A model generated the notes under the pieces. It was not told the DNA's origin. It did not search any database and saw only the letters and a program-made list of their open reading frames with translations. 64,000 nucleotides of DNA, from NCBI GenBank assembly GCA_964536615.1, contig CAZHYG010000002.1, positions 45,000-108,999 on the forward strand, given 5' to 3'. The stretch is from an uncultured Gammaproteobacteria bacterium. Its GTDB lineage: Bacteria; Patescibacteriota; Patescibacteriia; Magasanikbacterales; GWA2-37-8. Made by a program: the position numbers and the translations under genes. Shown here piece by piece: positions 15,486 through 33,800 of this stretch (within the stretch, counting starts at the first letter, position 1; each line of letters begins with the position of its first letter).

Positions 15486-16247
15486 ATGTCTATTCTTTCC
15501 ATAAAAAACCTACACGCTTCTATCGGAAAAACCAAAATTTTAAACGGCGTTTCACTCACCGTAAACTCAAATGAGATCCATGTTATCATGGGACAAAACG
15601 GATCTGGCAAAAGCACTCTTCTATCTGTGCTAATGGGCAGCCCAAAATATACTGTTACAAACGGTGCTATTACTTTAGACAAAAAAAATATTCTTGAGCT
15701 AACTCCAGATAAACGCGCCCAAGCCGGATTGTTTTTAGGTTTTCAGCACCCTCAGGTTGTGGCTGGCGTGGCGTTAGGGAATTTTTTACGACTCGCTCGC
15801 AACACCATCGGCGCAGTGCAACCAATCAAAGAAGGTCCGATTGCCCCTGCCCAATTTGCCAACACCATGCGTGAAGAAATGGCTCGCCTGAACATAGATC
15901 CTTCATTCATGGCCCGGTCAATTAACGAGGGCTTTTCTGGCGGAGAAAAAAAGAAATCCGAGGTGCTACAAATGGCAATGCTCAAACCAGCATTTGCTTT
16001 TTTGGACGAAATTGACTCTGGTCTTGATATAGACGCTCTAAAAACAGTTGCGCGTCAATTAGCGGCCCTACAAAAAAAACAAAAAATGGGATTAATTATT
16101 GTAAGCCATAATCCAAAAATTTTAGAATTTTTAAAACCAGATACTATACATGTCATGGCCAAAGGCAAAATTGTTGCCAAGGGCCGTAAAGAATTATTAA
16201 AAAAGATAGAAAAAAACGGCTTTGCTTCATTTTTAAAAAAGAAATAA
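15486..16247 (+). CDS. sufC: Fe-S cluster assembly ATPase SufC
   Basis: Walker A 'GQNGSGKST', signature 'FSGGEKKK', SufC length; first gene of a sufCBD-S-U-T array. Confidence 0.9.
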
Positions 16248-16249
16248 TC

Positions 16250-17668: not shown

Positions 17669-17672
17669 AATT

Positions 17673-18332
17673 ATGCCAAAAAAAATTATACAAAAAATTC
17701 CTTCTGCGCTGACTATACAAAAAAATAAGCGTGCTTTTTATTTTATAGATACAATTCCCAACGCGGAAATCAATCTTAAAAAACATACCGACACAACTAT
17801 TGTCGCGCTAGTTACTCAAGGCTGGGAAAATGAACGCCGACTTATAGTACGCGCTACCGAACCAGGAGCACGCTGTCGTTTAGTGTTTTTTATTCTGGGA
17901 AATGCTACAAATAAATTTACGGCTACTATACAAGCTATTCATCAAGATGAAAAAACTGACATAAAAGCTCGCATTCGCACAGCCTTAACCGACGAAGCCG
18001 TTTGCTCCGTCGCGGGTGACTGGATCATTGAACCGCGAGCTAAAGGAGCTGACACGCATTTTGCGCACCATACTCTTTTATTATCAGAAAAGGCTTCGGC
18101 AAAAACTTCACCGAACCTGGAAATTAAAACAGACAGCGTAAAGGCAGGCCATTCAGCCAGCGTGGGGAAAATAGATGAAGACGTATTATTTTACTTGCTT
18201 TCTCGCGGCATTTCGGAAACAGACGCGCGCGCTCTTTTGGTACAAGGGTTTTTTGAAAGCGAGCTAAACCAAATTGATAACCAGCGAGTGCAGGACACTA
18301 TTTCTCAAACTGTAAAAATATTTTTAGCATAA
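17673..18332 (+). CDS. sufD: SufD-like protein (short, C-terminal SufB/D core only)
   Basis: Follows sufB and shares its 'DEDVLFYLLSRGISETDARALL' motif. 219 aa, shorter than canonical SufD. Confidence 0.6.
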   Translation: MPKKIIQKIPSALTIQKNKRAFYFIDTIPNAEINLKKHTDTTIVALVTQGWENERRLIVRATEPGARCRLVFFILGNATNKFTATIQAIHQDEKTDIKARIRTALTDEAVCSVAGDWIIEPRAKGADTHFAHHTLLLSEKASAKTSPNLEIKTDSVKAGHSASVGKIDEDVLFYLLSRGISETDARALLVQGFFESELNQIDNQRVQDTISQTVKIFLA

Positions 18333-18337
18333 CATAT

Positions 18338-19555
18338 ATGCTTGCTACAAAAAAAGATTTTCCTATTTTACAAAGAAAAATCAATGGTAAAAAACTTGTA
18401 TACCTAGACAGCGCCTCTACCTCACAAAAACCAAAGGCACTTCTATCTGCTCTGCAAAATTTTTATACTACTTCTAACGCCAACATTCACCGAGGTATTC
18501 ATGATCTGTCCGTGGAATCAACTCAACAATACGAAGCGACCAGGAAAAAAGTTGCGGCTTTTATTGGCGCAGCTTCATCCGAAGAAATAGTTTTTACTAA
18601 AAATTGCACCGAGGCAATAAACTGCGTTCGTTTTTCATGGGGTGAAAAAAATATTAATCCTGGCGATGAAATTATTGTAAGCGGCTTAGAACATCATGCC
18701 AATTTTGTGCCCTGGCAAACTCTCGCCACAGAAAAACGCGCGACTTTAAAAATAATTCCGGTTACCTCCGATTTTCAGCTGGATCTGGAGGCGTATAAAA
18801 AAATGCTTTCAAAAAAAACTAAACTTGTTTGCGTTACCAGCCAGTCTAATGTAACTGGTACCATTAACCCCATACAGGAGATGACACGCCTGGCTCATAA
18901 TAAAGGCGCTTTCGTTATGATAGACGGCGCACAAAGCGTTGGCCACAGACCGATTAATGTGCGAAATATTGACTGCGACTTTCTTGCTTTTTCCGCCCAT
19001 AAAATGCTTGGACCAACTGGCGTAGGCGTTATATATATTAAACAAAAAATAATGATGGATATGCCTCCATTTATGTATGGCGGTGAAATGGTAGAAACGG
19101 TGCAAGACACTCACACAACCTACCGCACAGGTCCATGGAAATTTGAAGCCGGCACTCCTAACATTGCCGACATAATTGCATTTGGCGCATCACTTGATTA
19201 TCTGCAAAAAATAGGAGTGGCTCGTATTGCAAAACACGACAAACAGCTTCTTGCGCAGACAAAAAAAATGCTGCGGAAATATCCAAAAGTACGCCTATTC
19301 TCCCCTGCCAATAATAACTTGTGCGGAAATGTTCTGTCTTTTACTGTTGAAGGAGTTCATCCGCACGATATTGCCACAATTTTTAATAACGAAGGCATAG
19401 CCATTCGTTCCGGACTTCACTGCGCTGAACCGCTCGCCCGACGACTCGGCATAACCGGCACAGCGCGCCTAAGTTTTTATCTATACAACGATATGGCCGA
19501 TATAGACAAGGTTGAAAAAGCTCTGCAAAAAGTAATCAAAATTTTTAAATTATAG
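18338..19555 (+). CDS. sufS: Cysteine desulfurase SufS (class V aminotransferase)
   Basis: PLP-fold motifs ('SAHKMLGPTGVGVIY'), active-site Cys region 'RSGLHCAEP'; operon context. Confidence 0.85.
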   Translation: MLATKKDFPILQRKINGKKLVYLDSASTSQKPKALLSALQNFYTTSNANIHRGIHDLSVESTQQYEATRKKVAAFIGAASSEEIVFTKNCTEAINCVRFSWGEKNINPGDEIIVSGLEHHANFVPWQTLATEKRATLKIIPVTSDFQLDLEAYKKMLSKKTKLVCVTSQSNVTGTINPIQEMTRLAHNKGAFVMIDGAQSVGHRPINVRNIDCDFLAFSAHKMLGPTGVGVIYIKQKIMMDMPPFMYGGEMVETVQDTHTTYRTGPWKFEAGTPNIADIIAFGASLDYLQKIGVARIAKHDKQLLAQTKKMLRKYPKVRLFSPANNNLCGNVLSFTVEGVHPHDIATIFNNEGIAIRSGLHCAEPLARRLGITGTARLSFYLYNDMADIDKVEKALQKVIKIFKL

Positions 19556-19557
19556 AT

Positions 19558-19926
19558 ATGGATCTTTATAACGAAATAATTTTAGATCATTATCATAACC
19601 CGCACCACGCCACGGCTCTTCATACATTTACCCAGACTTCCACTGTACACAACCCTCTATGCGGAGATGTTCTAAAGCTCGACATCAATGTAAAAAATGG
19701 CATAATTGCAGACATCGGATTTACGGGCAATGGCTGCGCGATTAGCCAGGCTGCCATGTCTTTGCTAGCTGACGCAGTAATTGGAAAAAAAATTAGCGCT
19801 GTAAAAAAAATAAACCAAACTAAAATTTATGCGCTGCTTGGAATTCCTATCAGTCCCGGACGCAGTAAATGCGCCTTGCTTGGATTAAGCGCCTTAAAAC
19901 AAAATCTTACTGCTTATGAAAAATAA
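19558..19926 (+). CDS. sufU: SUF scaffold protein SufU (NifU/IscU-like)
   Basis: 'NPLCGDVLKL', 'GNGCAISQAAMSL', 'SKCALLGL' conserved Cys triad. Confidence 0.8.
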   Translation: MDLYNEIILDHYHNPHHATALHTFTQTSTVHNPLCGDVLKLDINVKNGIIADIGFTGNGCAISQAAMSLLADAVIGKKISAVKKINQTKIYALLGIPISPGRSKCALLGLSALKQNLTAYEK

Positions 19927-20245
19927 AACCGCCTGCACTCCGACACCGCCGGAAAAACGCACTGAGCCATACTGGAAAATACTCAACAATATTATTGACC
20001 CTGAAATTGGCGTTGGAGTTGTTGATCTTGGCTTAATTTATAACATAGAAATTAAACAAAACACAGCCACAATTACTATGACTTTTACCAGCATGGGCTG
20101 CCCGGCAGGACCAAGTATTACCGAACAAATAAAAGAAGAAATGGAAAAAATTCCTGGCGTAAAAAAAGCAAAAATTAATATCGTTTGGGACCCTATTTGG
20201 ACTGCAGATAGAATGAATCCGGATATCCGGTTCATGCTTCCGTAA
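19916..20245 (+). CDS. sufT: DUF59/MIP18-family Fe-S assembly protein (SufT-like)
   Basis: 'ILNNIIDPEIGVGVVDLGLIYNIEI' DUF59 signature; last gene of the suf array. Confidence 0.7.
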   Translation: MKNKTACTPTPPEKRTEPYWKILNNIIDPEIGVGVVDLGLIYNIEIKQNTATITMTFTSMGCPAGPSITEQIKEEMEKIPGVKKAKINIVWDPIWTADRMNPDIRFMLP

Positions 20246-20890
20246 CTAACCTTTGGCAAGCACCAACCCGTGCACTTCTCGCACACCAGCATCGCGCAGC
20301 ACAAGCGCGCACTCTCCCATGGTTGACCCAGTCGTAAAAATATCATCAATCAAAATCACTTTTTCCGGCACTTTTCTTTTACTCTCAAAGCTAAAAGCTC
20401 CTTTGGTATTTTGCATCCGCTCTAATCCGGATAATTTTGCTTGCTGTTTGGTGTATATATTACGACGCAGCATATGCGCCATCGGCACATCATAGATTCG
20501 TGAACATATATTCGCGATCGCCTCCGCTTGATTAAATCCGCGCTCACGATATCGGCGGGGATGCAGTGGCACTGGTACGAGCGCATATCCTGCCAAATCA
20601 AAAGAAAATATTTTTTTACGCATAAGGCTCTCTAAATCAGACAGCACATCCATTGCAAATTGATATTTTAACAAACGCGCCAATTCTGATATCGGATTAT
20701 CTCCATATTCGGATAAAAAAATCAGGCTATCTAAGCCTGCTCCTGGCGCAACTAAAAAACTACGGATTTGCGACTGATCTGATTCAGCCTGCAAACACTG
20801 AAGGCATAACCACTCTCCTTCTTGTTTGCATACCACACACAACTTTGGAAATAAAATATCAACCAAAAAAGAAACCCTCCTGTGAACCAT
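20246..20890 (-). CDS. comF: ComF-family protein (phosphoribosyltransferase-like, N-terminal Zn finger)
   Basis: 'CVVCKQEG..CLQCL' Zn finger; PRTase motif 'VILIDDIFTTGSTM'. Confidence 0.75.
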   Translation of the reverse strand: MVHRRVSFLVDILFPKLCVVCKQEGEWLCLQCLQAESDQSQIRSFLVAPGAGLDSLIFLSEYGDNPISELARLLKYQFAMDVLSDLESLMRKKIFSFDLAGYALVPVPLHPRRYRERGFNQAEAIANICSRIYDVPMAHMLRRNIYTKQQAKLSGLERMQNTKGAFSFESKRKVPEKVILIDDIFTTGSTMGECALVLRDAGVREVHGLVLAKG

Positions 20891-20893
20891 ATG

Positions 20894-21478
20894 CTAATTC
20901 CAAGTTAACGTGTTAGCCAGCCAAACACTTTCTATTTTTTTCATGCCAACCGTAACGTCTTGATACATATTTTTAATAGATCCATTTTTATTTTCCGTAC
21001 GCACAGTTTTTAAAACAACCGTAGCGGCATCACCCGACCAATCTGAAATTTGCGTACTGGCAACTTTGGTAGTAACGCCAAAAAAAGCAGTGTTGGTATT
21101 TTTAGTTTTCATAGCCGCGCTTATTTTTGTCCATAAGGCTGGCGTTACCAGTGTTTTTACTTCCAAAATATTTTGAAATTCATTATCTGTGGAATATGTG
21201 CCGTAGCGTTCAACCACAATCTTAGCAATCTGTTCTACGCTATTTTTTTCCAACTCCTCTGCGGTAAGGGGTTTAACTGGAGTGCCTGCGGGTATAACCG
21301 TAGCACCAGGCTGAGTTATTTGTCCGGATGAATTGTTATTAGATGTGGTGGAAGTAGGCTGTGCATTTGAAGATAGATCATTTTTCTGTTTGCCGCGCAC
21401 AAACAAAAATATGCTGACTGCTAAAATAAACAGAATAATAATGCTGAGAATAATGAAAATGCGAGCGCGCAGGGACAT
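20894..21478 (-). CDS. Hypothetical membrane-anchored protein with Ser/Thr/Asn-rich linker
   Basis: N-terminal TM helix and low-complexity linker. First gene of the T4SS-like cluster. Confidence 0.4.
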   Translation of the reverse strand: MSLRARIFIILSIIILFILAVSIFLFVRGKQKNDLSSNAQPTSTTSNNNSSGQITQPGATVIPAGTPVKPLTAEELEKNSVEQIAKIVVERYGTYSTDNEFQNILEVKTLVTPALWTKISAAMKTKNTNTAFFGVTTKVASTQISDWSGDAATVVLKTVRTENKNGSIKNMYQDVTVGMKKIESVWLANTLTWN

Positions 21479-21500
21479 ACAATAAAATTAAAATTGATAA

Positions 21501-23375
21501 TTATTTGGTTTGTTGTTCAAACTCTCGCTTAGAACGTTCTATTTCTAAAAGCTGCTCAGGATTGGTGGTTACGAGCTGATCTTCAGTATATGAAGCCACA
21601 ACTTTAATAGCTGCATGCTTGTTGCCGGCAAAAAATATCCCCTCCCCAACTCCGCTTTCCAATAATAAATACTTTTCTCCTTCAGTAAGAATAAAGACTT
21701 TCTGGACTAAATCAATTGCAGCCGGAGATTGGCGCAACAATAGCTGCAAAGCCGAGTTGGTTACGATAGCTTGGCCATACTGTGATTTAAGAAAATCATT
21801 AACATCCTGAGTAATGGTGGTAACGCCTAAATAATACTTGCGCGCGCGTTTAACTAACGCAAAAATAAATCGGGCGCTATCTTCATGCTGCATGAGCCAC
21901 CACGCCTCATCGATAACCAGCAGTCTTTTTTTGCGTTCGGAACGAACCACATTCCAAATATAATTAATAATGGCATATATAGACATTGGCCGTAGCTCAT
22001 CTTCCAAATCACGAACACTAAATACCACCAACTGATTTTTCATATCCACATTGGTTGGCGCATTGAACAACCCGCTAAATGTACCTTCGGTGTATTTCTT
22101 GAGGCGTAACACCAAATCTCCAGACCCTTCCATGCCTTCTAAAATTTCTTGCAAATCCTGAATAATTGGCGGCTGCACTATCTGCAAATCAGCTTCGGGA
22201 GTAATATCTTTCTTGGCATAAGTTTCAATTAGGGCTCGATCAATAATTGAGTCCTGCTCGGTAGTTAAATTTCCAAGCATGATTCGCAATAGTCCTTTTA
22301 CGGTAATAACCGCACCGCGAATTATGTCCTCAGTTGAAAAATCTTCACCACCAGTTGGTCGAGGCAAATCAAACGGGTTAACCTTGCTTTCTGAAGACAA
22401 AGAAATATTTATATATGTGCCGCCTACCGCATCTGCCAAATGCTTATATTCCATTTCAGGATCTATCACTATCACGTCAACACCCATCATCATGCTTCGC
22501 AAAATCTCCAACTTAATGGCATAACTTTTACCGGCACCAGAGGTAGCAAAAACAGCCATATTGGCGTTTTGCAAAGAGAATCTATCAAACAGAATAAGAC
22601 TGTTGTTATGGCGATTAACTCCGTATAAAATACCATCGTCTGAGGTAAGTTCCGCGGATGTAAATGGGAATGAGGCGGCAATTGGCGAAGAATTAAGGTT
22701 AAATGAAACCATAAGCTCATCATTGGCTAATGGCAATGTAGAGTTGAAACCCTGTTCGGCTTGGTATAGTACTTTACGGCTATTTATTAACTTGGAACCA
22801 AAAATATTTTCCACATCTTCGGAAACCTGATCAAGCTCTTCTTTGGTTTTCGCGTACAAAGTTACATAAAAAGCGAATTGGAAAAAATGCTCAACACCTT
22901 GGGTTAAATCATCTCGCAACTGTTCAATATCGCGCAAAGCGGTTTCTCGCACCGGATCGCGCGGGGCGCCTTTTTCTGAATCTGCCGTAAGCTGCGCTTC
23001 AAGCGCGCCGACTTTATTGCGCAGTTGTTTTAAAATAATAGCTGACTTGACTGGGTAAAAAAACATTCCCACATCCATGGTAATAGACAAATTAAGCACC
23101 GGCGAGCTCCAGCCAATAGAAATATATCGCGGATATGTAACAACAAAAAGAGTACGGCACACAATATTGCCGAGCTGCACATAACTTGGCTCAACATTAA
23201 ACGCAGAAGGTGCCAGCAAGTCTTTTATAGAAACCGTACCCTCTCTGTAGGCGCGCTCCTCTTCTAACGTTACTAGCTCTTCATTTGATTTTTTTTCAAT
23301 ATCTTCTGCCTTATTCTTAAACAAGCCCTTGCGTGCAGGAGCGGCGGTGTTGGAAAATTGTGGTTTAAAAGCCAT
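21501..23375 (-). CDS. VirB4/TraC/TrbE-family ATPase (T4SS-like), ATPase core
   Basis: Walker A 'FATSGAGKSY', VirB4-type Walker B 'LLVIDEAWWL'; 624 aa. Confidence 0.75.
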   Translation of the reverse strand: MAFKPQFSNTAAPARKGLFKNKAEDIEKKSNEELVTLEEERAYREGTVSIKDLLAPSAFNVEPSYVQLGNIVCRTLFVVTYPRYISIGWSSPVLNLSITMDVGMFFYPVKSAIILKQLRNKVGALEAQLTADSEKGAPRDPVRETALRDIEQLRDDLTQGVEHFFQFAFYVTLYAKTKEELDQVSEDVENIFGSKLINSRKVLYQAEQGFNSTLPLANDELMVSFNLNSSPIAASFPFTSAELTSDDGILYGVNRHNNSLILFDRFSLQNANMAVFATSGAGKSYAIKLEILRSMMMGVDVIVIDPEMEYKHLADAVGGTYINISLSSESKVNPFDLPRPTGGEDFSTEDIIRGAVITVKGLLRIMLGNLTTEQDSIIDRALIETYAKKDITPEADLQIVQPPIIQDLQEILEGMEGSGDLVLRLKKYTEGTFSGLFNAPTNVDMKNQLVVFSVRDLEDELRPMSIYAIINYIWNVVRSERKKRLLVIDEAWWLMQHEDSARFIFALVKRARKYYLGVTTITQDVNDFLKSQYGQAIVTNSALQLLLRQSPAAIDLVQKVFILTEGEKYLLLESGVGEGIFFAGNKHAAIKVVASYTEDQLVTTNPEQLLEIERSKREFEQQTK

Positions 23376-23400
23376 ATATTAAATTACCCAATTATCATAA

Positions 23401-24081
23401 TTATTCTGTGCGCAATTCATTAACCGGAGGCAGATGTTCGCTAAACGCGATATCGGGGTTATAGGTGGAATAAAACAACTCAATAAGCGATTGTGTATCC
23501 AGCCGCACCACCTCTAAATTCATACTGGTAAGGCCGGATTCAATCTGGCGCACCCGCATATCCAAATCATGTTTGCGCAATTGAAATCTTTCGTCCTTTA
23601 ATTTAATGGTTACCGCCGGATTAACCACTTCTTTTATGCGAGACCAAAATCCTTTTTTATTATTTGAAAGTGGGTCGTATGGCACAATCACAAAAAACTG
23701 CTTGCTCATAATATTGCCAAGACTCACCAATTCGGAGACAAACGAACGATAATCGGCAATTTGCACACGCAATAATTCGTTGGTTTGTTCACGCTCTTGT
23801 TTGAGCAGTTTTTCTAAATATGGCTTAATATATAGTTGTCGGGATTGCACCACAATTTGCAAAGGAAAATCAATACCGTTTAAAAATGAAACGTACGATG
23901 AAACAATCGCGTTTTGCTCATCTTCATTTTTAAGCGCAAAATTGATACTGGAAACCAAAAGAATGGCGCGCAGCGTTCCGTCTTTCATCACCACCGTATC
24001 AAATTTTATTTCCGCAAATGGCAAATGATTTTGCGCGCTTTCAATTTTTATATTGCCTTTTTTTACCCGTTCTTCTGGCAT
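23401..24081 (-). CDS. Hypothetical protein; possible detached N-terminal domain of VirB4
   Basis: 226 aa ORF 25 nt upstream of the VirB4 ATPase core; the two together add up to full VirB4 length. No motif recognised. Confidence 0.3.
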   Translation of the reverse strand: MPEERVKKGNIKIESAQNHLPFAEIKFDTVVMKDGTLRAILLVSSINFALKNEDEQNAIVSSYVSFLNGIDFPLQIVVQSRQLYIKPYLEKLLKQEREQTNELLRVQIADYRSFVSELVSLGNIMSKQFFVIVPYDPLSNNKKGFWSRIKEVVNPAVTIKLKDERFQLRKHDLDMRVRQIESGLTSMNLEVVRLDTQSLIELFYSTYNPDIAFSEHLPPVNELRTE

Positions 24082-24087
24082 ATATTT

Positions 24088-24522
24088 TTATGGTTTTTGT
24101 TCCCCGCTATAATATCCGCCCGTATTAACAATCAAGGATAAATCGCGAATACGGCTGTATGACATTTTTGGCATTTCTTTAACAGGTTCTGTAGATACAA
24201 CCGATACCGATTTGATAGCGTCTAAGAGCTCTTGTTTTTCATGCATTTTATGCCAAATTCTTCGGCTCGGACGACGTAAAGTTTGCACAATATTTAATAA
24301 AAAATAATGGAATGACTGTCCATTAATTTTTACAAATGCCAAAACTAAAGCCAAGCCACCGATAAGCACTGCTAAAAAAATAAACAATGCCGTATCTGCC
24401 CATTTAAAAGCAGCAGTCAATATTAATCCAGTCACAAGTAAAATAACAAACTGCCGCGTTGTAATAGGGCCGAAAATTTTGTCTTCAACTTCTATAAATT
24501 GTGGAACTACAAATTGATCCAT
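24088..24522 (-). CDS. PrgI/VirB3-like small two-TM membrane protein
   Basis: 144 aa with two hydrophobic helices, immediately upstream of the VirB4 ORFs as in Gram-positive-type T4SS. Confidence 0.5.
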   Translation of the reverse strand: MDQFVVPQFIEVEDKIFGPITTRQFVILLVTGLILTAAFKWADTALFIFLAVLIGGLALVLAFVKINGQSFHYFLLNIVQTLRRPSRRIWHKMHEKQELLDAIKSVSVVSTEPVKEMPKMSYSRIRDLSLIVNTGGYYSGEQKP

Positions 24523-24527
24523 AAATT

Positions 24528-25631
24528 TTATAAGGCTGATTCAATTTCAATTATCGCCATCACCTCACTTAATTTTATACTATTTTGCGCCGCAAGTACA
24601 TTGGCAATAGTTTTTCTCTCGGCTAGCGATGCGGCCACAGCATTCATATATGCGATATAGAGCGGACAACTATGAAACGCGGCCACACCATCCATATACC
24701 AAACATACGATTCTTCTTTCAAATTAAGGATTTTTTGCAAAACGCGTTTTGCTGCTTCTTCAGGCTTGCTGGAAAGCCGGCGAAAATCTTCTACGGTCAT
24801 TGATCTGATTTCTTCAATCGGCCCCATTTCCATCTCTGAAACTGTTATATCTTGCATAACTGGACGCGCAGACGGCTGAGTACTAATTTTAAAGACAGGT
24901 TCGTTAGCAAGGCTTTCGTTAATAATTTTTGACACAATTTTTTCTTTTTCATTAACGGGAGGACGAGCTGGAGTTGAGTTTTTTGTTCGCACACCTCCAG
25001 AAACTGGCAATACCATTGGCAATTCTGGCGGCTCCACCATTGGCAGCATATGCAAAGCAGATCCCTTGAGTACAGGCACACTCGTATTTTCAGATACAAC
25101 ATTTACAGAAACCTGTCGACAGATATCTAACATTTTTTGGACCTGTAAATCGGATAAACCCAATCCACCATTTTTTACCGGCTTACACAATATATCTTTT
25201 ACTTCATCGTCCGTTTTAATATCTTTAAGACGTGCCAAGACTAAACTTTTTAATCGCCCCTGCAGTTCTGAACCTACTGAAAACCCAAGCTTACGCACGA
25301 CTTCTTCAACCTGCTTTTCTCTTTTTTGGCTGGTGAGCCCACCAGCAGCTGATGCCGGTTTTTTTTCTTCAAGCAGCGAACGAGCATCATCACGCGTCAT
25401 AGCTACCGGCTTAGCCGGTTCTTTTTTTTCTTTTATCTCAACTGTTGTTTTGGAAACAATATTGCGCGCCGGCGAATTACCCGCAGCAGGTGCGTTTTGC
25501 GTCGATGCACGAGCTGGGGCAGGCGCAACCGCAACTGGTTTTTTGGCAGCTTGGGCTTTTTTAATATCGCTTAGCGGCACTTTAGCAAAAGTGCCGTCGG
25601 GGCGTTTTATAGTAATAAGCGGCTCGGTCAT
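24528..25631 (-). CDS. Hypothetical Ala/Pro/Lys-rich protein
   Basis: Low-complexity N-terminal half (APAPARASTQNAPAAG..); no TM helix; sits in the T4SS-like cluster. Confidence 0.35.
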   Translation of the reverse strand: MTEPLITIKRPDGTFAKVPLSDIKKAQAAKKPVAVAPAPARASTQNAPAAGNSPARNIVSKTTVEIKEKKEPAKPVAMTRDDARSLLEEKKPASAAGGLTSQKREKQVEEVVRKLGFSVGSELQGRLKSLVLARLKDIKTDDEVKDILCKPVKNGGLGLSDLQVQKMLDICRQVSVNVVSENTSVPVLKGSALHMLPMVEPPELPMVLPVSGGVRTKNSTPARPPVNEKEKIVSKIINESLANEPVFKISTQPSARPVMQDITVSEMEMGPIEEIRSMTVEDFRRLSSKPEEAAKRVLQKILNLKEESYVWYMDGVAAFHSCPLYIAYMNAVAASLAERKTIANVLAAQNSIKLSEVMAIIEIESAL

Positions 25632-25634
25632 ATG

Positions 25635-26558
25635 TTATATATTCCATTTAAATTGAGCGTCCTGTTCGTCAAAATAGAGTAGGTTTGCAATTTCTGGATT
25701 ATTATATTGTCCTGACAATTCTTGTAGTTTGTTTAAAACAGCTTCTATATCCTGAAATTCTCCAGCCTCGTTCTTTGGAAATTCAGATTCTATCTGGGAT
25801 TTGATTTCTGAAAGCACAGGAACTTGCATACGCACATTTTCCACATCTAACTCTGCTTCTTCATCATTAGTCACGAATAAGGATGCCGGCTCGTCGTAAA
25901 CTTGCGGGTTTAAAAAAACCTCTAGAACCTCTTGCAATTTTTCCACCGTATCTATATCTTCAAAAAAATTAACCAATTCTAGCAATCTATCCACTCCATC
26001 CGCTTTATTGCCTACCCCAAAATATTGTTCTGCCTCTAGTGGAAACAGTATTTGATTTAACTTACTGATAAATTCAGCCATTCGCATGGAATTATCTGTA
26101 CGTTTAAGATCTGCGTATTCCAAAACCAAATCTTTTAACTGCACGTTTTTACCTTGGTACTCCCCTAAAAATTCTTGGGAATTCAAAAAATTATTTCGAA
26201 CTTTAAAATACAGAGATGCTAGACGAGCTTTATCAGCCTTATTAGCGCTAAAAAACCAAAGCATTTCTTTAAAAATATCTATATCTAAAATGATAGCCAT
26301 TGGCGCCTGGCGCGCCATGATTTGTGCAAATACGTCCGCATCAGTAATGGTATCAATAACTTTCCAACTAAGGAGCACATATACCCGAAAATATGTCCAT
26401 CGCCAAACTTTATCTTTTTCATACATGTCCTTGGCAAAAAAACTATCCAGATCTTTCCATGTTTCATAGATACTATCAAAATTGGTATTATTATCAAAAA
26501 TACCTTGTTCAATTTGAACAAACTCTTCAAGCGTTTTTTTCTCAATTACAAGCTTCAT
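25635..26558 (-). CDS. Hypothetical acidic protein
   Basis: 307 aa, Glu/Asp-rich, no recognised domain. Confidence 0.35.
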   Translation of the reverse strand: MKLVIEKKTLEEFVQIEQGIFDNNTNFDSIYETWKDLDSFFAKDMYEKDKVWRWTYFRVYVLLSWKVIDTITDADVFAQIMARQAPMAIILDIDIFKEMLWFFSANKADKARLASLYFKVRNNFLNSQEFLGEYQGKNVQLKDLVLEYADLKRTDNSMRMAEFISKLNQILFPLEAEQYFGVGNKADGVDRLLELVNFFEDIDTVEKLQEVLEVFLNPQVYDEPASLFVTNDEEAELDVENVRMQVPVLSEIKSQIESEFPKNEAGEFQDIEAVLNKLQELSGQYNNPEIANLLYFDEQDAQFKWNI

Positions 26559-26568
26559 ACTGCCTAAT

Positions 26569-29500
26569 TTATTTTTTACGCTTATTCAATTCTTTTAGGG
26601 CTTCTTCAACTTCTTTTATATTATTACCATTTTTCATTCTACCTGTTTCTAGAGCAAACTTAAGCAGGGCCTCTACCCCTCTTTTATCCGGTACTTGTTT
26701 TTCTAAACGACCAAGTAAATCTTGCAAATCCGGAACGCTGCTGTTGTCAAAAATCGCACCAATATCACCCTTAGTGAACTCTTCTACATTTCCTAAATTG
26801 TTCCCAGTTAAACCGACTGCCAATTTTACAAATATATCTTTTGAATCCTCAGATTTGACTACCAACTTTCCATCAACTCCTCGATCCATACTACCTGCAA
26901 AACCAATTACATTTGTAAGTTTAGATCCAGATAAACCATTTTTTCTTCTACCCGCAACATACTCTCTGTCGCCCTTATTTTCTGCATCCACCAAAACTGT
27001 CTTCAGTGTTGCACTATCTATCTTATACAACCCAGCTCTACCCAACGAACCCTGACCAGCAGCTTTTTCATTTTTTAATCTTTTTTGTTCTAACATGGCA
27101 TTCGCCTTATCTCCATATATTTCATTCAATCTTTCTAAAGCTTTTTCTAAACTTGCATGACTGCTTGCATCAACTTTTTCATTTATGAGCTCTGCTAAAT
27201 CTTGAGCTTGTAAATTTCGAATAGCTTGAGGAGTTAGCTCCATTGACTGAGCATTTGACATTCCTACAGCTTCCAAAATTTTGCCTTTAATACCGTCTGC
27301 TACTGCCGCATGAGTACCTAAATTACTTATCTGCATTTCAGACAAACTTCTTTCTAAAATTCTTAAAACTGTTTCTGCGGCTTTTTTAGATTTTTCATCT
27401 TTTGCGCCTGCTATTATTTTTTTCTGGGCTTCGATTCTGGCGAGCTGAGCAGTAGTTTTGGCATCACTCTGAACATAATCGCCGGCCGCATTATGTCTCT
27501 TTATCCTCTCTTCAACTTGATTGTTTATGGTATTTTGCTCGTTATTCGCCTCACTGCTTCTATTTTCATCTCTCAAGACTTTATCGCGTGCTCGAGCGAT
27601 TTGTAAATCTTGCAACTCCTTTACATCAAAATTAAGCTGTTCAGCCATAGCCTTGCTTTTAGCAGGCTCAGTCACTTCTAAACCTTGTTTTAGCAGCTCT
27701 TTTATGGATTCCAATTCTTCAATCTGCTTTTTAGCAGCCAACTCGTCTTCAATTCGTTTTGTTTCTGCTCGCACTTCCGCAGATTTACCTTGTAATTCTT
27801 TCCCTTCATTTCCATGGAGATATTTTTCTAATTTTTCTACTTCTTGTTTTTTATGCTCCTCTCCAACATATTCTTTTTTTACTTTTGCTTCTGCTTTTGA
27901 TTTCATTGATTTATTGAACCGATCAAACCCTTGTCTGGCCTTAAATATATCCATATCATCTAAGCCAAGTTCCCTAAGCTCTTTGTCAACTTCTTCTTCA
28001 GACTTGCCACGCTCTTCACCACGTTCTAAGGTGTGCATTATTTTTTCACGCAATAATTCCATGTTCGCTTCTTTTCCTGCCTTGATATCTGCACCTGTAT
28101 GTTCCAAAAAATGCAACCATTCTTTGGCTTTCTGTTTTTTCATACCAATAGGCAAACTACTTGTACTAGCCAAATGGTCTAACTGCTCATGTTTTGCTTC
28201 AGCGGTAGCTTCCAGATCTTCAGAATAAGCTTTATGGAAAGCACCATATCCAATACCCCATTCCAACCTTGCTCTGGCAAATGTTCTTTTAGCCCAATCT
28301 CCCAAACCTTTCTGATCCACAGTGTCATACTTAATATTACCATGCTCATCTTTTATAATATTACCCTGCTCATCTCTCAAGGCAACTTTTTTCACATATT
28401 TACCCTTTTCATTAACAGCGAAAGTTTTTGAAATTTCCCCAGCCTTAACCGTGCTTTTTGCAAGCCGATCATAATACCAACCTGCTGCCCTACTCTTAAT
28501 ATTATGGCCTCGTCGCTGCCAAGCTTCCCCACCAATCAACGGCATTTTCATTACCGCAAATTTCCCGGCCGCCTTTGCCCCCTCGCCAACTTTACCACCA
28601 GCCCATTTTGCAGCCTGGAAGCCAGATGCGTACATGGCGGCTTTTTTGCCCAACTCACTGGCACTGCCCATCATATGTGCTCCGGCAACGCCAAGCTCTT
28701 CAGCCATTTTTGCCCCAGCCATTAAAATTGCAATGGCGATAATAAAATTTCCCATGTTTTCCCAACTCATTACTTCTGTAATACCTGTTTGTTCTTCGGC
28801 GGGTGCAGCTGATTCTTGCAACAACTGCCCTTGTTTAAGCGAATTATGCTTCACAATATCATCGTGAATATTTCCAGAACCAACTGTAACAAAAGAAAGC
28901 CAGAGAAAAAACGCGATTACCGGACCGGAAACAACGTTACTATTAAATTTTCCCCACCATTCACCGGCAAAATGTTCGGTTTGATGTAATACATTTAAAA
29001 CAAACGCAAATGGAGAAACCACGATAAGCACCCACAACATGGCCATGCGCGCCACAATCATAAACAAAAACGCCAGCATGGTGATAAGCATTGTTACCGA
29101 AAACATGATGGCCGCTACAGAAGCTAGAAAAATTGAAGCAGTGTCTCCGGTAAAATTGTCTCCATTGCCAAGTTTAAATATTTTATCTACCTGAAACATG
29201 TTGACCAAGTTGCCGCTGGCGGTGGCGGCGATACCGTTGAGAAATGTAACCATAACAATCTGCGCCACATCTATGATAAGACCGCAAATTAAACGGCTAA
29301 AATTAACGAGCACAGCTGCTGTAACCAGCTTAACCAGCATATGTTTCCATTCGTAGTGATCCAGACCAAGAATGGTACCGAATGCTATCATTAAAAGCAC
29401 AACCACAAAAAACATATTGGTGAGATCGCGAATCATAACCCAGCCAACCGTAACTGCCGGAGAATCTATGAACCCATTGTAACCAGCGACTTCAATGATA

Positions 29501-29757
29501 AATTTGAGAACAAAAAACGTAAGCTTGATACAAAAACCTGCCAACAAAAATAGCAGACCAGCAAATGCCTTGCCGATAGTTTCGCCAACACCACTTAACC
29601 AACCAGCTTGCGCAAACGGAGCAAAAACAAACCAACTAGTGATGATTGCGCTGGTAATTATAATAAAACTAACTAAGCCTAATTTTTTATGAGAACGAAA
29701 AAAAGACCAGAGCTGTCTGAAAATTAAACGCGCCTGTAGTGCAAATTGAGCAAACAT
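26569..29757 (-). CDS. VirB6/TrbL-like polytopic membrane protein with ~700 aa charged coiled-coil C-terminal extension
   Basis: N-terminal ~350 aa with multiple TM helices; then a long K/E/A-rich heptad-like region (KELQDLQIARARDKVLRDE..). Confidence 0.55.
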   Translation of the reverse strand: MFAQFALQARLIFRQLWSFFRSHKKLGLVSFIIITSAIITSWFVFAPFAQAGWLSGVGETIGKAFAGLLFLLAGFCIKLTFFVLKFIIEVAGYNGFIDSPAVTVGWVMIRDLTNMFFVVVLLMIAFGTILGLDHYEWKHMLVKLVTAAVLVNFSRLICGLIIDVAQIVMVTFLNGIAATASGNLVNMFQVDKIFKLGNGDNFTGDTASIFLASVAAIMFSVTMLITMLAFLFMIVARMAMLWVLIVVSPFAFVLNVLHQTEHFAGEWWGKFNSNVVSGPVIAFFLWLSFVTVGSGNIHDDIVKHNSLKQGQLLQESAAPAEEQTGITEVMSWENMGNFIIAIAILMAGAKMAEELGVAGAHMMGSASELGKKAAMYASGFQAAKWAGGKVGEGAKAAGKFAVMKMPLIGGEAWQRRGHNIKSRAAGWYYDRLAKSTVKAGEISKTFAVNEKGKYVKKVALRDEQGNIIKDEHGNIKYDTVDQKGLGDWAKRTFARARLEWGIGYGAFHKAYSEDLEATAEAKHEQLDHLASTSSLPIGMKKQKAKEWLHFLEHTGADIKAGKEANMELLREKIMHTLERGEERGKSEEEVDKELRELGLDDMDIFKARQGFDRFNKSMKSKAEAKVKKEYVGEEHKKQEVEKLEKYLHGNEGKELQGKSAEVRAETKRIEDELAAKKQIEELESIKELLKQGLEVTEPAKSKAMAEQLNFDVKELQDLQIARARDKVLRDENRSSEANNEQNTINNQVEERIKRHNAAGDYVQSDAKTTAQLARIEAQKKIIAGAKDEKSKKAAETVLRILERSLSEMQISNLGTHAAVADGIKGKILEAVGMSNAQSMELTPQAIRNLQAQDLAELINEKVDASSHASLEKALERLNEIYGDKANAMLEQKRLKNEKAAGQGSLGRAGLYKIDSATLKTVLVDAENKGDREYVAGRRKNGLSGSKLTNVIGFAGSMDRGVDGKLVVKSEDSKDIFVKLAVGLTGNNLGNVEEFTKGDIGAIFDNSSVPDLQDLLGRLEKQVPDKRGVEALLKFALETGRMKNGNNIKEVEEALKELNKRKK

Positions 29758-29950
29758 TTTTTAGCGATTATGTTGTATGCATTATACCATATTTTTAACA
29801 CGTCAACAACGCAAAAACATTAGTAAAAAATATGTGGATAAAAATATTATCGCGGGCTTGCATATTGCATTTTGGCATGGCCTATGTATAATACATATAT
29901 ACCTTTTTAGCGGCATATACGCGTATGCACTGTTTATGATGTGCTATAGA

Positions 29951-30002: not shown

Positions 30003-30165
30003 TCGTTCTTTACAAAGTGCTGAAACGAGCAAAACTGCTAGTTTTAGCCAAATAATGAGTTACTACTGAAGACGCCTCTGGGCGAATATTTGCTTCTCTT
30101 CTAGACAAAGAGAGGTAGTTATTCGCCTAGAGGATTCAACTTCCCCCTCTGGGTAGGAGACCGCC

Positions 30166-30696
30166 ATGAGCAAGTCGTCCGTCAACAAGACCGCCGCGCT
30201 CGTGCGCGGCATCGTCCTGAGCATCCTCGTGATGCTCACCACCCTCCTCGCCGCCTGCGGCGGCGAGGACGACCCCATCGGCGACGCCACCACGTCGCCT
30301 GACGGCCCCGTCCAGCTGGACGGCGGCATCGACGCCATGTCGCCCCCCGATGCGCCGCAGCTGGACGTGTGCCAGCAACAGGACCCCCCTCCCCAGGGGG
30401 CGTACGTGATGAACGGAAAGAGCCTGCGGTGTGGCGCAAACGCCATGCCTGGAGACCACAACTCGTGGATCTTCGCCGGCTCCTCGGAGTTCTCCTGCAA
30501 CCTCGATGTCCACCCGGACACCGAAACGGGCGCAATTTGCGTCGTTCTGTGTGATGGGCACTTCGGCGCAGACTACACCAACCTGGTGGTGGAACGAGCG
30601 GGACTCCAAGGCCCCTACCGCTTCTACTACACCCCGCCGGGAGACGTGATGGAGTACGTGTGCTACGATCCGAGTACGCTCCCGTCTCAGTCGTAA
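30166..30696 (+). CDS. Small lipoprotein encoded in strongly GC-rich, foreign-composition DNA
   Basis: Signal peptide + 'LLAAC' lipobox; third codon positions almost all G/C; GGAGA RBS 8 nt upstream. Surrounded by AT-rich native sequence. Confidence 0.6.
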   Translation: MSKSSVNKTAALVRGIVLSILVMLTTLLAACGGEDDPIGDATTSPDGPVQLDGGIDAMSPPDAPQLDVCQQQDPPPQGAYVMNGKSLRCGANAMPGDHNSWIFAGSSEFSCNLDVHPDTETGAICVVLCDGHFGADYTNLVVERAGLQGPYRFYYTPPGDVMEYVCYDPSTLPSQS

Positions 30697-30760
30697 CTTT
30701 TGGGGCAGCTATCCGCGCTGCCCCGATCCGCTTAGTAGAAAAATAATTTTCTATTGAGCA

Positions 30761-30800
30761 AAATAAAAAATCGTTGTGTAATACAACGATTTTTTATTTT
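30761..30800. terminator. Bidirectional rho-independent terminator (AATCGTTGT-gtaat-ACAACGATT flanked by A/T runs)
   Basis: Perfect 9-bp stem; T-run on + after the island gene and T-run on - after the giant gene (which ends at 30813). Confidence 0.6.
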
Positions 30801-30812: not shown

Positions 30813-33800
30813 TTAATTTGGCGTTACAACAACCTGCCCCGCAAATGGGGTGTACGCACCAATATTATCTTCACACTCATACTGAGGTATTGCGCCAACA
30901 GATCTATCGTAACACCCAACCCCACCTGAAGTTCCAGCAGATCCACAACTTCCATTACACCAACCCCAGTTATCTTTCAACTGTACAGCTGGTTTGAAGA
31001 CACAACATCCGCCATATAATGATTGGGTTTGCGCATCCGGACAAGTATTAGTCCAGCCGGTACCGTCGCGCGTACATTGATACACATGATCAAAACGGAA
31101 ATAGGCAGAGTCGCAAGTTTGTCCGATAATCTGACCAAAGCTTGGCGCCTTGCTTTCGGCTACACAATTATCCAAATACAAACAATCACTGCCCGACGAA
31201 CAATTTTTTCCGGTATCCAAATCGTATACACCTGCCGCGCCGGAAGAAATCATACACGTACCGCTGCTGCCGCAAATACCATTTACCGTACCGCGTTGAT
31301 TGCGGAAATAACCATCTAACGAAACTATATTGCCATCATTCCAGTCTAACTTAATTTTTTTCAACGGCATCTGATTTTTATCGGCAAAACCATAAAACTT
31401 AGCATTTACTACACCCACATTGGAACTAAACACAACATTACCGCTCGTTTTATCATTAACACTTATACCAGCGCTTAAACCTTCCAAACATTTACCTCCC
31501 GGCTTACAGGTGCCGAGCGGACGCACTTGCGGCGCGCGGTCTGGTGAAGATAATGTTTCGGTAAGATCATACGGACGAACCGCAGATGCATCACCAGCCG
31601 GCAACACACTGCTTATTTGCGTATTATTTTTATAGAAGAAGCCAGCAGATGGTGTCGAGCTAAGAGTCCAGTTCCATACACTGCTAATTTTGGCAAAAAT
31701 TTGCGAGAGGCTTGATTGCGCATCATCAAAATTACGCCCTGAAGCTTGGCCGGTTTGATCGGCGCGCGCGGAAGGATTTGTTTGCAAACAATTTCTGTCG
31801 GTACAAGCGTATGGAGAACCGACCGTTGCTGCAGGCAAAGCCGGAGTTGCGGCCGCATAATGAGAAAAAATTGAAATCAACTGATCCGGAACAAGCAAAC
31901 CTTGCATTGAGACACTGCCAAATGGTGAACCTGCTAAATTATTTTTATAATTTAATCCGGATGGATCTACGGCAAAATTACTTCTCTTCCACAAACGATC
32001 TGTCCAACCGACCGAAGTATATGGCGCATCTTTGGCTGTTTGCGCCACACTGGCACATGTTTCACGAAGACCCGCATATACATTAAATGTAGCATTTTCA
32101 AAATCAGTGCTTTCACCAGTAAAACAAACCAAACTTACATGATCAAGTTTTCCGCTCGCATCAAACATAGCTCGTATCGCACAACCATCATCATTATCAT
32201 CAACATTTTCATGTAAACAATTAGTTTGATAGTTATCGGCTCTTTCCACATCAACACTTCCACAATCTGCGCGAAGTAAATCTCTAAACTGAACTGCTGT
32301 TGTATCATACGGATCCGCATATTGATAATGCGGCAATGAAACCACGTCGCCCTGGCCATCATCCCATCGCATATACCACGCGCTTTTATCACGGCCATCA
32401 GACCAAACTTCTTGTCCGATATTTAACCCCGTTGCCTCTCCTGCAAATAACAACGATGAGTCGTTAACAAGATCTAAATTTGAACCATTGCCTGTAAAAA
32501 CTTGAGTTTGATTTGTATACTTACTTACATATCCATTTCTGATAAAAAATTTATTTGTACCATTAGGGAACCAGTCCGAATTTCCAGTTGCAGAAATCAA
32601 CAAATAATCAATTTCATCTCTGTAAACGGGCGTGCTAGCATTAACGGTCAACACCCTAATAGTACGATCATTTATCTGGTCGCTTTTTACCTCTTTGGTG
32701 CCTAATAATTTATCATAAATGGCAACATCACTACCCAACACACTTGTTACTGTTTGATTGCCTTTAGCATTTAAACAGTAGTATTTACCGGAGGCCTCAG
32801 TTGCTTGAAAACCAGCTTCCACATGCTGATTATTTATATCTAAAGCACCTGTAATACTGTCTTTAGGGAACCAGGTAAGACAAGCAAAACTTCCTTGTTC
32901 AGCATTTATCGGACGCGACAGATCTGGTTCAACGCAATATCCTTGCCAGCCAATGAGTTTGGACTGCTTCTTTAATTTTTGGCAAGTGCCGCCAGAACAA
33001 TCGCTATCAGTTGAACATACCTGATCAGCGTTATCTCCACCCACACAAATACCCGGCACAACACTCTTAAATATTTGCCCACTGCCACCAGCAATGCCCT
33101 GGCTATTCGGGTTATTGAAATTCCAATATCTTGTGAACGAATCACCGTATGATGCTTTGGTGTAACTACACTCGCAAGCATATGCCTTATCTCTGTCGGT
33201 GGTAGAGGTTGGCGATTCAGCACAGACGTTAACCGAGTTAAACAAGACTGAATTTTCTATATTGCTTGTATTTGGGAACGGGGATGTCTCCTCTGGATAC
33301 GCTCGGCAAGATGGCGAGATTGATTGACGAGGAGCGTTACTGGAAGCGTCATCTAAATTTTGCACACAGACTGGATTGCCTGCTCCCATACACACACCAA
33401 TGTTACTTCGACCGCAGGCCAGACCAACTGCATTTGATTTGCAGGCAGTGTTGTTTGGATTTGTGGTTTTACAATTTGCACCGCCGCCACAACCCATAGT
33501 TTTTGCCAAACGCCAATCGGTGTTTGTAGCACTGCCAACATTAACTTCGGATAATTCTTCCAACGGGAATGTATTTAAAATACTAAAGCCGCTAAAATCT
33601 TCTCCGCGCCAATCGGTACTTCGGTTGCGATACGCTGTTTCGGTCAATACTTGACCGCTCAAATCATGGGAATTATCAACCCAATTTGCACAATTAATAA
33701 GGCCATTACCTGTGGAACCTGAAACCTTATTACACCTTCCCACATCGTCACAAACCTCTTTATATGTGCCAGATTGGGGATCGAACACGCGATGCGAAGA

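Follow-up and report, generated by a model that had tools for sequence, protein, structure and literature searches.

The window that we analysed, a 64-kb stretch of an ABY1-class Magasanikbacteria-like genome, carries at positions 20246-29757 a chromosomal T4SS of the 'Patescibacteria clade', which derives from monoderm MPF-FATA conjugation systems. Clusters of this non-conjugative kind are typical of the ultrasmall Patescibacteria. The cluster consists of eight tightly packed, co-oriented ORFs on the minus strand, all of them present as initially annotated, with intergenic gaps of 3-25 nt. These genes encode an extended VirB6-like protein, two unannotated proteins, PrgI/VirB3, TrsD, a VirB4 ATPase, a VirB8/PrgL-like anchor protein and ComFC, and they form one operon for a cytoplasmic-membrane translocon in which ComFC comes last. 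As an explanation of the whole, a Patescibacteria-clade T4SS operon, its identity taken together with an import mechanism, is moderately probable. The system, its comF linkage in ABY1 and the hypothesis of DNA or macromolecule import have been published before (PMC12102498; PMC10633639), so the call is correct but not new.

Components of the operon

The first gene (26569-29757, minus strand, as are all genes below) encodes an extended VirB6/TrbL-like protein of 1062 aa. Its N-terminal domain (about residues 1-390) is conserved and polytopic, with 7-9 hydrophobic segments, and is followed by a C-terminal region of about 700 aa that is hydrophilic, K/E-rich and poorly conserved. The protein itself matches no Pfam or NCBIfam model, so the VirB6 assignment, which the initial annotation had made for the protein directly, rests on its homologue family. 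The protein has 267 homologues, and nearly every one with an informative source name carries a Patescibacteria label. Pfam TrbL matches 6 of 30 family members, and in one relative, P0025, the match (residues 112-288) covers the conserved TM region and exceeds the gathering score (28.1 versus 25.9 bits). By hhalign, similarity to TrsL of pGO1 was weak (23%) and that to PrgH of pCF10 was not significant. Reading the sequence 5' of this gene by eye, we found a stretch that resembles a promoter (29781-29806, minus strand), with TTGACG, a 14-nt spacer and TGgTATAAT (an extended -10); a consensus promoter scan omitted it owing to the short spacer, and such scans do not rise above chance in this region.

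The next two genes encode lineage-specific soluble proteins of the translocon operon. The 307-aa protein (25635-26558), a hypothetical protein of conserved position, is acidic, divergent and devoid of a TM segment; it matched nothing in Pfam, NCBIfam or PDB sequences, nor, by hhalign, any of the pCF10 Prg or pGO1 Trs proteins, and in 28 loci tblastn located it in the corresponding place. The 367-aa protein (24528-25631) is a conserved hypothetical protein, and in every locus where tblastn picks up its gene, that gene directly precedes prgI. It is built from two confident helical domains (101-181 and 271-366), disordered linkers and a small beta element at the N-terminus.

The remaining translocon genes are better defined. 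The 144-aa PrgI/VirB3-like protein (24088-24522) has two TM segments and matches PF12666 at 39.1 bits (cutoff 27), as its annotation had proposed, and its identity is 41-75% over 79 loci. What had been listed as a 226-aa ORF (23401-24081) is a TrsD-type protein, that is, the VirB4 N-terminal domain as a separate gene: it matches NF041427 TrsD/TraD (E 3.5e-8) and the N-terminal portions of two VirB4 models, NF045975 and NF045971, aligns with pGO1 TrsD at 79% by hhalign, and has relatives that match PF26593 TraC-like. Loci that span this region likewise encode TrsD and VirB4 separately, so the split is not a frameshift. The VirB4 ATPase (21501-23375, 624 aa) has the expected intact Walker A (GAGKS, residues 280-284) and 'DEAW' Walker B (489-492) and matches NF045971 conju_CD1110 at 354.9 bits (cutoff 325) and PF19044 at E 8e-27. 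Its match to the monoderm-type VirB4 in PDB 4ag5 (E 2.6e-49) is far stronger than that to MPF-T TrwK (6e-5), and it scores 40.6 bits against NF010473 VirB4, for which the cutoff is 1050. The hypothetical protein downstream (20894-21478, 194 aa) is membrane-anchored, as noted initially, and can now be given an identity as a VirB8/PrgL-like bitopic protein, with an N-terminal TM helix, a disordered linker and an NTF2-like domain. Its family profile aligned with pCF10 PrgL by hhalign (91% probability, E 1.1e-6; 88.7% in a second run), and the best PDB match that Foldseek returned for its AF2 model (pLDDT 81.6) was the VirB8-like protein 4o3v, with further matches to TrwG/VirB8 of R388, DotI, CagV, PrgL (7aed) and generic NTF2 folds.

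The last gene, 3 nt further on, encodes a ComFC-family protein of 214 aa (20246-20890). It covers the whole TIGR00201 profile (positions 1-190 of 190, E 4.1e-30), below the NCBIfam curated cutoff, a point that we list against import. It also matches PF00156 and DZR_2 and has the four-Cys zinc ribbon and PRT motif of ComF, with conserved CxxC...CxxC, RGFNQ and DD.xTTGxT. ComEC (55289-56830, 513 aa, with DUF4131 and Competence domains and no MBL domain) is encoded apart from the cluster, as had been stated, but inside the window, 25 kb away.

Direction of transport

The adjacency of T4SS genes and comF is real and conserved. Among the 71 loci with enough flank, 66 have comF in the same orientation and no more than 2 kb downstream of virB4, and the median gap to the preceding VirB8-like gene is 28 nt. 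We favour import because this linkage persists although ComF identity is just 28-47% across the lineages that keep it, and because ComFC is described as binding ssDNA and tying import to recombination (Damke 2022, as relayed by a source that cites it). Import of DNA or other macromolecules was proposed in the 2025 paper (PMC12102498), and DNA import by this cluster is a plausible hypothesis. VirB3, VirB6 and VirB8 would form the dock for VirB4 and TrsD, which would energize a putative channel where the cell touches its host; this channel may bear a surface structure and, in this lineage, would carry nucleic acid into the cell. ComFC would be translated together with the machine, take over the single strand as it enters at the membrane and pass it to recombination or nucleotide salvage, with ComEC encoded elsewhere. 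We also count in favour of import that recG and radA often occur in ABY1 T4SS loci (PMC12102498), that ComB is a DNA-importing T4SS with VirB4 only (PMC12857230) and that archaeal VirB4-like DNA importers (Ced) are known. Against it stands Southlakia epibionticum (class Saccharimonadia), the one cultured model, in which the T4SS is essential whereas comEC, comF and dprA do not count as fitness genes, so that whatever makes this T4SS essential bypasses the Com proteins (PMC10633639; PMC12857230). In this species, comEC alone accounts for transformation and its deletion abolishes it (PMC10633639), and type IV pili plus ComEC suffice to explain DNA uptake. In addition, comF adjacency is reported in ABY1 only (PMC12102498), and the operon membership of comF could reflect co-regulation instead of physical coupling. 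Taken alone, the import mechanism is thus a tentative proposal, somewhat short of likely.

It is possible, though rather doubtful, that the same machine works outwards, as a pilus or attachment structure or by exporting proteins or effectors onto or into the host, with comF a co-transcribed passenger that serves ordinary T4P/ComEC competence. Such a role would accord with Southlakia, whose T4SS has an essential function unconnected with comEC, comF and dprA; in that study, the authors suggested protein export or another role because a coupling protein and relaxase are missing (PMC10633639). VirB2-like pilin arrays lie beside many Patescibacteria T4SSs, tubular structures that reach the host have been observed in a cultured parasite, and here the syntenic neighbour is a giant Cys-rich surface protein (30813-38426; 2537 aa, 104 Cys) with an N-terminal signal anchor and CBM_4_9. 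This gene, which has a hairpin at 30760-30800, forms a transcription unit of its own, and relatives of it are found on the upstream side of the cluster in L005, L006, L007 and about 15 more loci; its product may be an adhesin partner. Between it and ksgA lies a gene for a 201-aa TM protein with a TSP3 repeat (38438-39043), which is syntenic in L005 and L007. However, neither a VirB2-like small two-TM protein nor a cell-wall hydrolase was seen in or beside the cluster, no candidate effector was found, and outward transport leaves the tight, long-lived comF linkage unexplained.

Inheritance of the locus

Whichever way it transports, the cluster is a vertically inherited cell machine and not a mobile or conjugative element, as the initial annotation had also concluded. 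It is flanked by housekeeping genes (the suf operon at one end, ksgA/RF1/groEL at the opposite end), and the same gene order is kept in 80 species-level genomes of Magasanikbacteria, Uhrbacteria and Falkowbacteria, across which VirB4 is 71-92% identical. A close VirB4 occurs in at least 579 species-level genomes. In loci L005-L087, the gene order is identical even where identity of the VirB6-like, ComF and VirB8-like proteins falls to 21-53%. Distant species share both the surroundings of the locus and a highly similar VirB4, which indicates purifying selection on a core gene, not decay. A conjugative or integrative element of Gram-positive MPF-FATA type, or its decayed remnant, is therefore very improbable and largely refuted by gene content, flanks and conservation, even though the profiles that fit best are those of conjugation proteins (CD1110-family VirB4, TrsD, PrgI and PrgL). 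The GC content of the cluster is that of the genome, and scanned ORFs of at least 100 aa across the 64 kb contain no relaxase, VirD4/T4CP, VirB11 or integrase domain, the first three as annotated; no cell-wall hydrolase was seen there either. The absence of VirD4 applies to the window and does not extend to the genome, because Patescibacteria usually encode VirD4-like proteins at a large distance from virB4 (PMC12102498). A VirD4-like protein may thus be encoded outside the window, a further point listed against import.

Comparison with known systems

Orthology to the Helicobacter ComB DNA-uptake T4SS (MPF-T type) is the least credible reading, despite a shared VirB3/4/6/8 subset, com genes in the genome and no T4CP nearby, since VirB4 is of the monoderm type, TrsD is split off, VirB3 is of the PrgI type, profile searches of the cluster found no VirB2, VirB7, VirB9 or VirB10 homologue, and an outer membrane is reported absent in Patescibacteria. 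The 'comB-like' label is thus not supported: these diderm parts are missing, and VirB4, TrsD, PrgI and the VirB8-like protein match monoderm MPF-FATA systems (pCF10, pGO1 and CD1110) rather than MPF-T/ComB. Overall, what the initial annotation observed is confirmed, and its interpretation is partly supported. A functional analogy to H. pylori ComB with ComEC/ComFC is possible, as both are powered by VirB4, have no coupling protein and have ComEC and ComFC in the genome, whereas ComB is of another T4SS class, which includes VirB2 and, as outer-membrane parts, VirB7/9/10. To our knowledge, comF lies outside the comB operons in H. pylori.

The closest likeness is to the Patescibacteria-clade T4SS (Quinonero-Coronel et al. 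2025, PMC12102498; S. epibionticum SEML1_0006-0019, Wang et al. 2023, PMC10633639), with which the cluster shares VirB4, a separate TrsD, PrgI/VirB3, VirB6, a chromosomal location without a relaxase nearby and ksgA in the neighbourhood; as here, loci of class ABY1 have comF and a detectable VirB8 homologue. In contrast to those systems, we saw no VirB2-like pilin array or hydrolase, and recG/radA are not near the cluster in the window. The 307-aa and 367-aa proteins and the giant Cys-rich neighbour are not discussed in the available portions of those reports.

Among MPF-FATA plasmids, pGO1 (trsC-trsD-trsE) has the same local order of VirB3, TrsD and VirB4, and pCF10 (prgH-prgI-prgJ...prgL) likewise places VirB6 upstream and the VirB8-like gene downstream of virB4. 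The cluster differs from both in having no T4CP (PcfC/TrsK), relaxase, CHAP/lysozyme hydrolase, adhesin PrgB or SSB, in the hydrophilic extension of its VirB6 and in not being on a mobile element.

Rickettsia RvhB6 and F-plasmid TraG are examples of extended VirB6 proteins. We detected no sequence similarity between the window extension and known VirB6 extensions, and it differs from them in being K/E-rich and of varying length (in relatives, the whole protein has 744-1890 aa). In architecture, however, the window protein agrees with this class as defined in a review (PMC12857230), with a polytopic VirB6-like domain and a large hydrophilic C-proximal domain.

Gene content of the T4SS-like operon

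Eight co-oriented ORFs on the minus strand occupy window positions 20246-29757 in an operon-like packing, with intergenic spacing of 3-25 nt, which bears out the layout proposed in the initial annotation. At the centre of the cluster is a 624-aa VirB4 ATPase (21501-23375). It matched NF045971, the CD1110 family model, at 354.9 bits (cutoff 325), matched the VirB4 structure 4ag5 in a PDB sequence search (E 2.6e-49) and carries Walker A (GAGKS) and Walker B (DEAW) motifs, as first noted. The call of a PrgI/VirB3-like protein with two transmembrane (TM) segments also held, as this 144-aa protein (24088-24522) matched Pfam PF12666 at 39.1 bits (cutoff 27). Between the two genes lies a 226-aa ORF (23401-24081) that matched NF041427 TrsD/TraD (E 3.5e-8), aligned with the N-terminal parts of two VirB4 models and scored 79% against pGO1 TrsD in hhalign; the TraC-like family PF26593 was found in the TrsD-like proteins of relatives. 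Its sequence matches indicate that this ORF is the VirB4 N-terminal domain encoded as a separate gene, like TrsD in pGO1. The split is kept in the related loci that cover this stretch, so it is not a frameshift.

The largest protein of the cluster (1,062 aa; 26569-29757) has 7-9 hydrophobic segments within its first ~360 residues, followed by a K/E-rich hydrophilic region of ~700 aa, and had no direct Pfam or NCBIfam match. Its family comprises 267 homologues, of which those meaningfully named are almost all labelled Patescibacteria; the VirB6-like proteins of relatives range from 744 to 1890 aa and share a strongly conserved N-terminal TM domain. Pfam TrbL/VirB6 was matched by 6 of 30 family members, and the sole member above the cutoff, P0025 (39% identical), scored 28.1 bits against a TrbL gathering threshold of 25.9 over residues 112-288. 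In hhalign, the family was weakly similar to pGO1 TrsL (23%) and not significantly similar to pCF10 PrgH (1.6%), and the full-length family profile, searched against PDB sequences, matched nothing but low-complexity and coiled-coil noise (such as TolA, a tape measure protein and SMC). Extended VirB6 proteins are known to carry large hydrophilic C-proximal domains (PMC12857230). On this transitive evidence and its position, we accept the protein as a probable extended VirB6-like component rather than a proven member; the original VirB6/TrbL-like call thus depends on the protein's relatives, the window protein itself matching no profile.

The 194-aa product of the gene downstream of virB4 (20894-21478), initially described as a membrane-anchored hypothetical, does have an N-terminal TM helix and had no Pfam or NCBIfam match. 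A profile of 58 orthologues matched pCF10 PrgL with 91% probability (E 1.1e-6, hhalign), and in the AF2 model (pLDDT 81.6) a disordered linker connects a TM helix to an alpha+beta NTF2-like domain. The top match of this model in a Foldseek search of the PDB was VirB8-like 4o3v, followed by TrwG/VirB8 (including chains of the R388 T4SS cryo-EM structure), DotI, CagV and PrgL (7aed). Generic NTF2 folds were intermixed among these matches at similar scores, so gene context bears part of the argument. The predicted fold and the profile match together indicate that this bitopic protein is VirB8/PrgL-like and no longer a mere hypothetical. With its addition, the cluster would encode the full monoderm inner-membrane set VirB3/4/6/8, in place of the minimal VirB3/4/6 set originally proposed.

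The last gene encodes a 214-aa ComF family protein (20246-20890). It aligned with TIGR00201 over the whole profile (E 4e-30), at 105 bits against a curated cutoff of 233.55, and matched the Pfam families DZR_2 and Pribosyltran. It combines an N-terminal four-cysteine zinc ribbon (C18/C21/C29/C32) with a PRT-fold domain containing conserved RGFNQ and PRPP-loop-type IDD.xTTGxT motifs. In a phmmer search of PDB sequences no ComFC chain was matched, the only hit being a weak one to an orotate PRTase. The comF call is therefore supported by the full-length alignment, the zinc ribbon and the PRT motif, at a score below the curated cutoff.

The two genes listed as hypotheticals in the initial annotation had no Pfam or NCBIfam match. 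The 367-aa protein (24528-25631) is encoded directly upstream of prgI in 76 related loci that yielded a complete ORF, and its family profile retrieved 2,531 clusters at 50% identity from a library of 1.84 billion proteins. No Pfam domain was detected in any of ten sampled members, and the family had no Pfam model and no structural match. We consider this protein and its relatives (P0121-P0433) a candidate new T4SS-associated family. The 307-aa protein (25635-26558), acidic and lacking any TM segment, is far more divergent than the 367-aa protein; its family profile had no match among PDB sequences. Neither family reached 10% probability in hhalign against 24 pCF10 Prg/Pcf and pGO1 Trs proteins. 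Together, these component identities confirm the gene cluster first described, with refinements.

Chromosomal setting and conserved linkage to comF

The cluster has the GC content of the rest of the window and lies among chromosomal housekeeping genes. A suf Fe-S operon (15486-20245) converges with it on one flank. The other flank begins with a 408-nt gap, in which we read a promoter-like TTGACG-14-TGgTATAAT; a promoter and terminator scan was not above shuffled expectation and speaks neither for nor against internal signals. Beyond the gap are a small GC-rich ORF, a giant Cys-rich surface protein, a TSP3-repeat membrane protein and ksgA, and past ksgA an MFS transporter, a DUF4015 glycosyl hydrolase-like gene, yrdC/sua5, RF1 and groEL. 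The giant protein (2,537 aa, 104 Cys) has an N-terminal signal anchor and a CBM_4_9 domain, and the adjoining TSP3-repeat protein has 201 aa (both genes within 30813-39043, minus strand). Synteny of both genes with the T4SS cluster and ksgA extends to the distant relatives L005 and L007, and the giant protein may therefore be an adhesin partner.

Between the giant-protein gene and the operon lie a perfect 18-nt hairpin (30760-30800) and an island of ~550 bp (30100-30700) with 60-73% GC in a genome of ~40% GC. The island ORF (30166-30696, plus strand) encodes 176 aa with a signal peptide, a lipobox-like LLAAC and no family match. The island is present in L001, a near-identical metagenome contig, but absent at that position in L005-L007, and so appears to be a recent foreign insertion.

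Nearly all ORFs of 100 aa or longer in the 64 kb were compared with Pfam, and none matched a relaxase, VirD4/TcpA, VirB11 or integrase family, as had been noted for the first three; nor was a replication module (Rep) found in the window, which thus holds no detectable conjugation genes. No small two-TM ORF or pilin-family match indicative of a VirB2-like pilin was seen in or beside the cluster, a search that very divergent pilins could escape. ComEC, previously said to be encoded elsewhere, is indeed outside the cluster but within the window (55289-56830, minus strand); it has DUF4131 and Competence domains but lacks a metallo-beta-lactamase (MBL) domain at its C terminus. A gene for a separate MBL-fold protein (52662-53567, minus strand) lies ~1.7 kb from it, with DHO dehydrogenase and methyltransferase genes between.

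Several other features of the window were recorded. A 1,156-aa leucyl-tRNA synthetase (56837-60307, minus strand) contains an inserted NUDIX domain (residues 419-523) and an inserted serine-hydrolase/alpha-beta-hydrolase domain (603-774). Two tandem tRNA-Ser genes (7854-8040, plus strand) were assigned the anticodons ACT (loop TTACTAA) and then GCT by ARAGORN; an A34 tRNA-Ser is unusual in bacteria. A cluster at 8191-14204 encodes two ATP-grasp proteins, a 799-aa fused ATP-grasp/MATCAP-like peptidase protein and a protein that combines a PKD domain with a 7TM domain of a type mostly found joined to an inactive transglutaminase.

The arrangement of the operon is conserved far beyond this contig. 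An identical VirB4 was found on several metagenome contigs with unchanged neighbours, and contigs of 0.29-1.03 Mb that encode distant VirB6-like homologues (25-52% identical) had an identical gene order: ksgA, a ~200-aa protein, the giant protein, VirB6-like, two unknowns, PrgI, TrsD, VirB4, a ~195-aa protein and ComF-like. The suf and ksgA flanks also recur in relatives. A scan of one genome per GTDB species gave at least 579 loci with a close VirB4, the top 80 of which were 71-92% identical. Where the record titles of these 80 were informative, most read Magasanikbacteria and a few Uhrbacteria, Falkowbacteria or Nomurabacteria, or else just "Patescibacteria group". By tblastn, the block VirB6-like/367-aa/PrgI/TrsD/VirB4/VirB8-like/ComF was retained almost everywhere the flank permits. 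In 66 of the 71 eligible loci, comF follows virB4 on the same strand within 2 kb, with a median gap of 28 nt between it and the VirB8-like gene. Conservation is much stronger in VirB4 than in its partners, as is typical of core machinery passed on vertically. Many of the public MAG records with the locus (including L008 and L012-L014) bear the title 'uncultured Gammaproteobacteria bacterium', and single records are assigned to Candidatus Methylomirabilis and to Udaeobacter; on a Patescibacteria locus, these look like placeholder or wrong taxonomy.

Possible substrates and direction of transport

We tentatively favour nucleic-acid import coupled to ComFC, at a confidence somewhat short of even. 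VirB4/TrsD would dock on VirB3, VirB6 and VirB8 and energize a channel in the single membrane, and in ABY1, the Patescibacteria class concerned here, channel activity would be tied to ComFC. T4SS loci of this class commonly contain comF, recG and radA, and import of DNA or other macromolecules has been proposed for Patescibacteria T4SS (Quinonero-Coronel et al. 2025, PMC12102498). The role described for ComFC is the handling of incoming ssDNA (PMC10633639, referring to Damke 2022).

Alternatively, the apparatus could face outward as a pilus or in attachment or protein export, with comF a co-transcribed passenger, which we regard as possible but rather doubtful. The strongest evidence against import comes from the cultured model Southlakia epibionticum, which cannot grow as an epibiont without its T4SS (Wang et al. 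2023, PMC10633639). These data show that, in at least one class, the essential role of the apparatus does not require Com proteins.

A more specific form of the import reading, which we think unlikely, is that T4SS and ComFC in ABY1 form one contact-dependent 'reverse conjugation' machine that draws host nucleic acid into a recipient believed unable to make its own nucleotides; the VirB6 tail and the two unannotated proteins (367 and 307 aa) would then handle substrate like an export coupling protein. Import as such has already been proposed in print (PMC12102498), and novelty would be confined to these particular roles of ComFC, the two proteins and the VirB6 extension. Patescibacteria account for a large part of bacterial diversity, with a near-universal T4SS that is essential in their sole genetic model. 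The comF-translocon operon of ABY1 is the clearest genomic hint that the T4SS substrate may be nucleic acid, and supplies concrete proteins of interest in ComFC, the 367-aa family and the VirB6 tail. The interpretation in the initial annotation is, as a whole, partly supported, and DNA import is unproven.

Relationship to known type IV secretion systems

The best curated VirB4 model is of the FATA type (CD1110), but membership of a conjugative MPF-FATA element is very improbable and effectively excluded: no MOB, T4CP (VirD4/TcpA), integrase or Rep gene was found among the scanned ORFs of at least 100 aa in the window, and the suf/ksgA flanks recur in relatives, so that the initial view of the locus as non-conjugative stands. 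Orthology to Helicobacter ComB is slighter still and likewise effectively excluded: the MPF-T-type VirB4 model NF010473 scored only 40.6 bits (cutoff 1050), the TrwK match was weak (E 6e-5, against 2.6e-49 for monoderm-type 4ag5), and we found no VirB2/7/9/10, whereas ComB has ComB2 and ComB6-10, including the outer-membrane core VirB7/9/10. As a family label, 'comB-like' is accordingly wrong. The archaeal Ced import system (CedB with CedA/A1/A2) was also considered and rejected, as the CedB model NF041017 scored 51.7 bits (cutoff 700) over the P-loop region only.

The closest resemblance is to the T4SS of Patescibacteria. In a survey of 3,035 Patescibacteria genomes, VirB4 was found in 2,417 assemblies, nearly all in one monophyletic clade nested in MPF-FATA, with TrsD, PrgI/VirB3, VirB6 and VirB2-like pilins as neighbours (PMC12102498). 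In that survey relaxases were very few, VirD4-like genes mostly lay at a distance from virB4, VirB8 homologues were almost confined to ABY1, and the surroundings of the loci included housekeeping genes such as ksgA. In a cultured relative described in a 2026 preprint, host RNA serves as food and tubular structures are present that may be T4SS pili. The system, its non-conjugative nature, the comF linkage in ABY1 and the import hypothesis are thus all published, and the locus adds little to them. The frequent, though not universal, VirB2-like pilin genes near virB4 were not seen here. The similarity of its VirB4 to those of 80 Magasanikbacteria, Uhrbacteria and Falkowbacteria genomes (71-92% identity) suggests placement in the Patescibacteria clade, and the locus shares with these systems a separate TrsD adjoining virB4, PrgI/VirB3, a 64-kb surrounding in which no relaxase domain was found and a housekeeping context. 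It is most likely an instance of this published system, and its interpretation as an import machine repeats the hypothesis already advanced for it.
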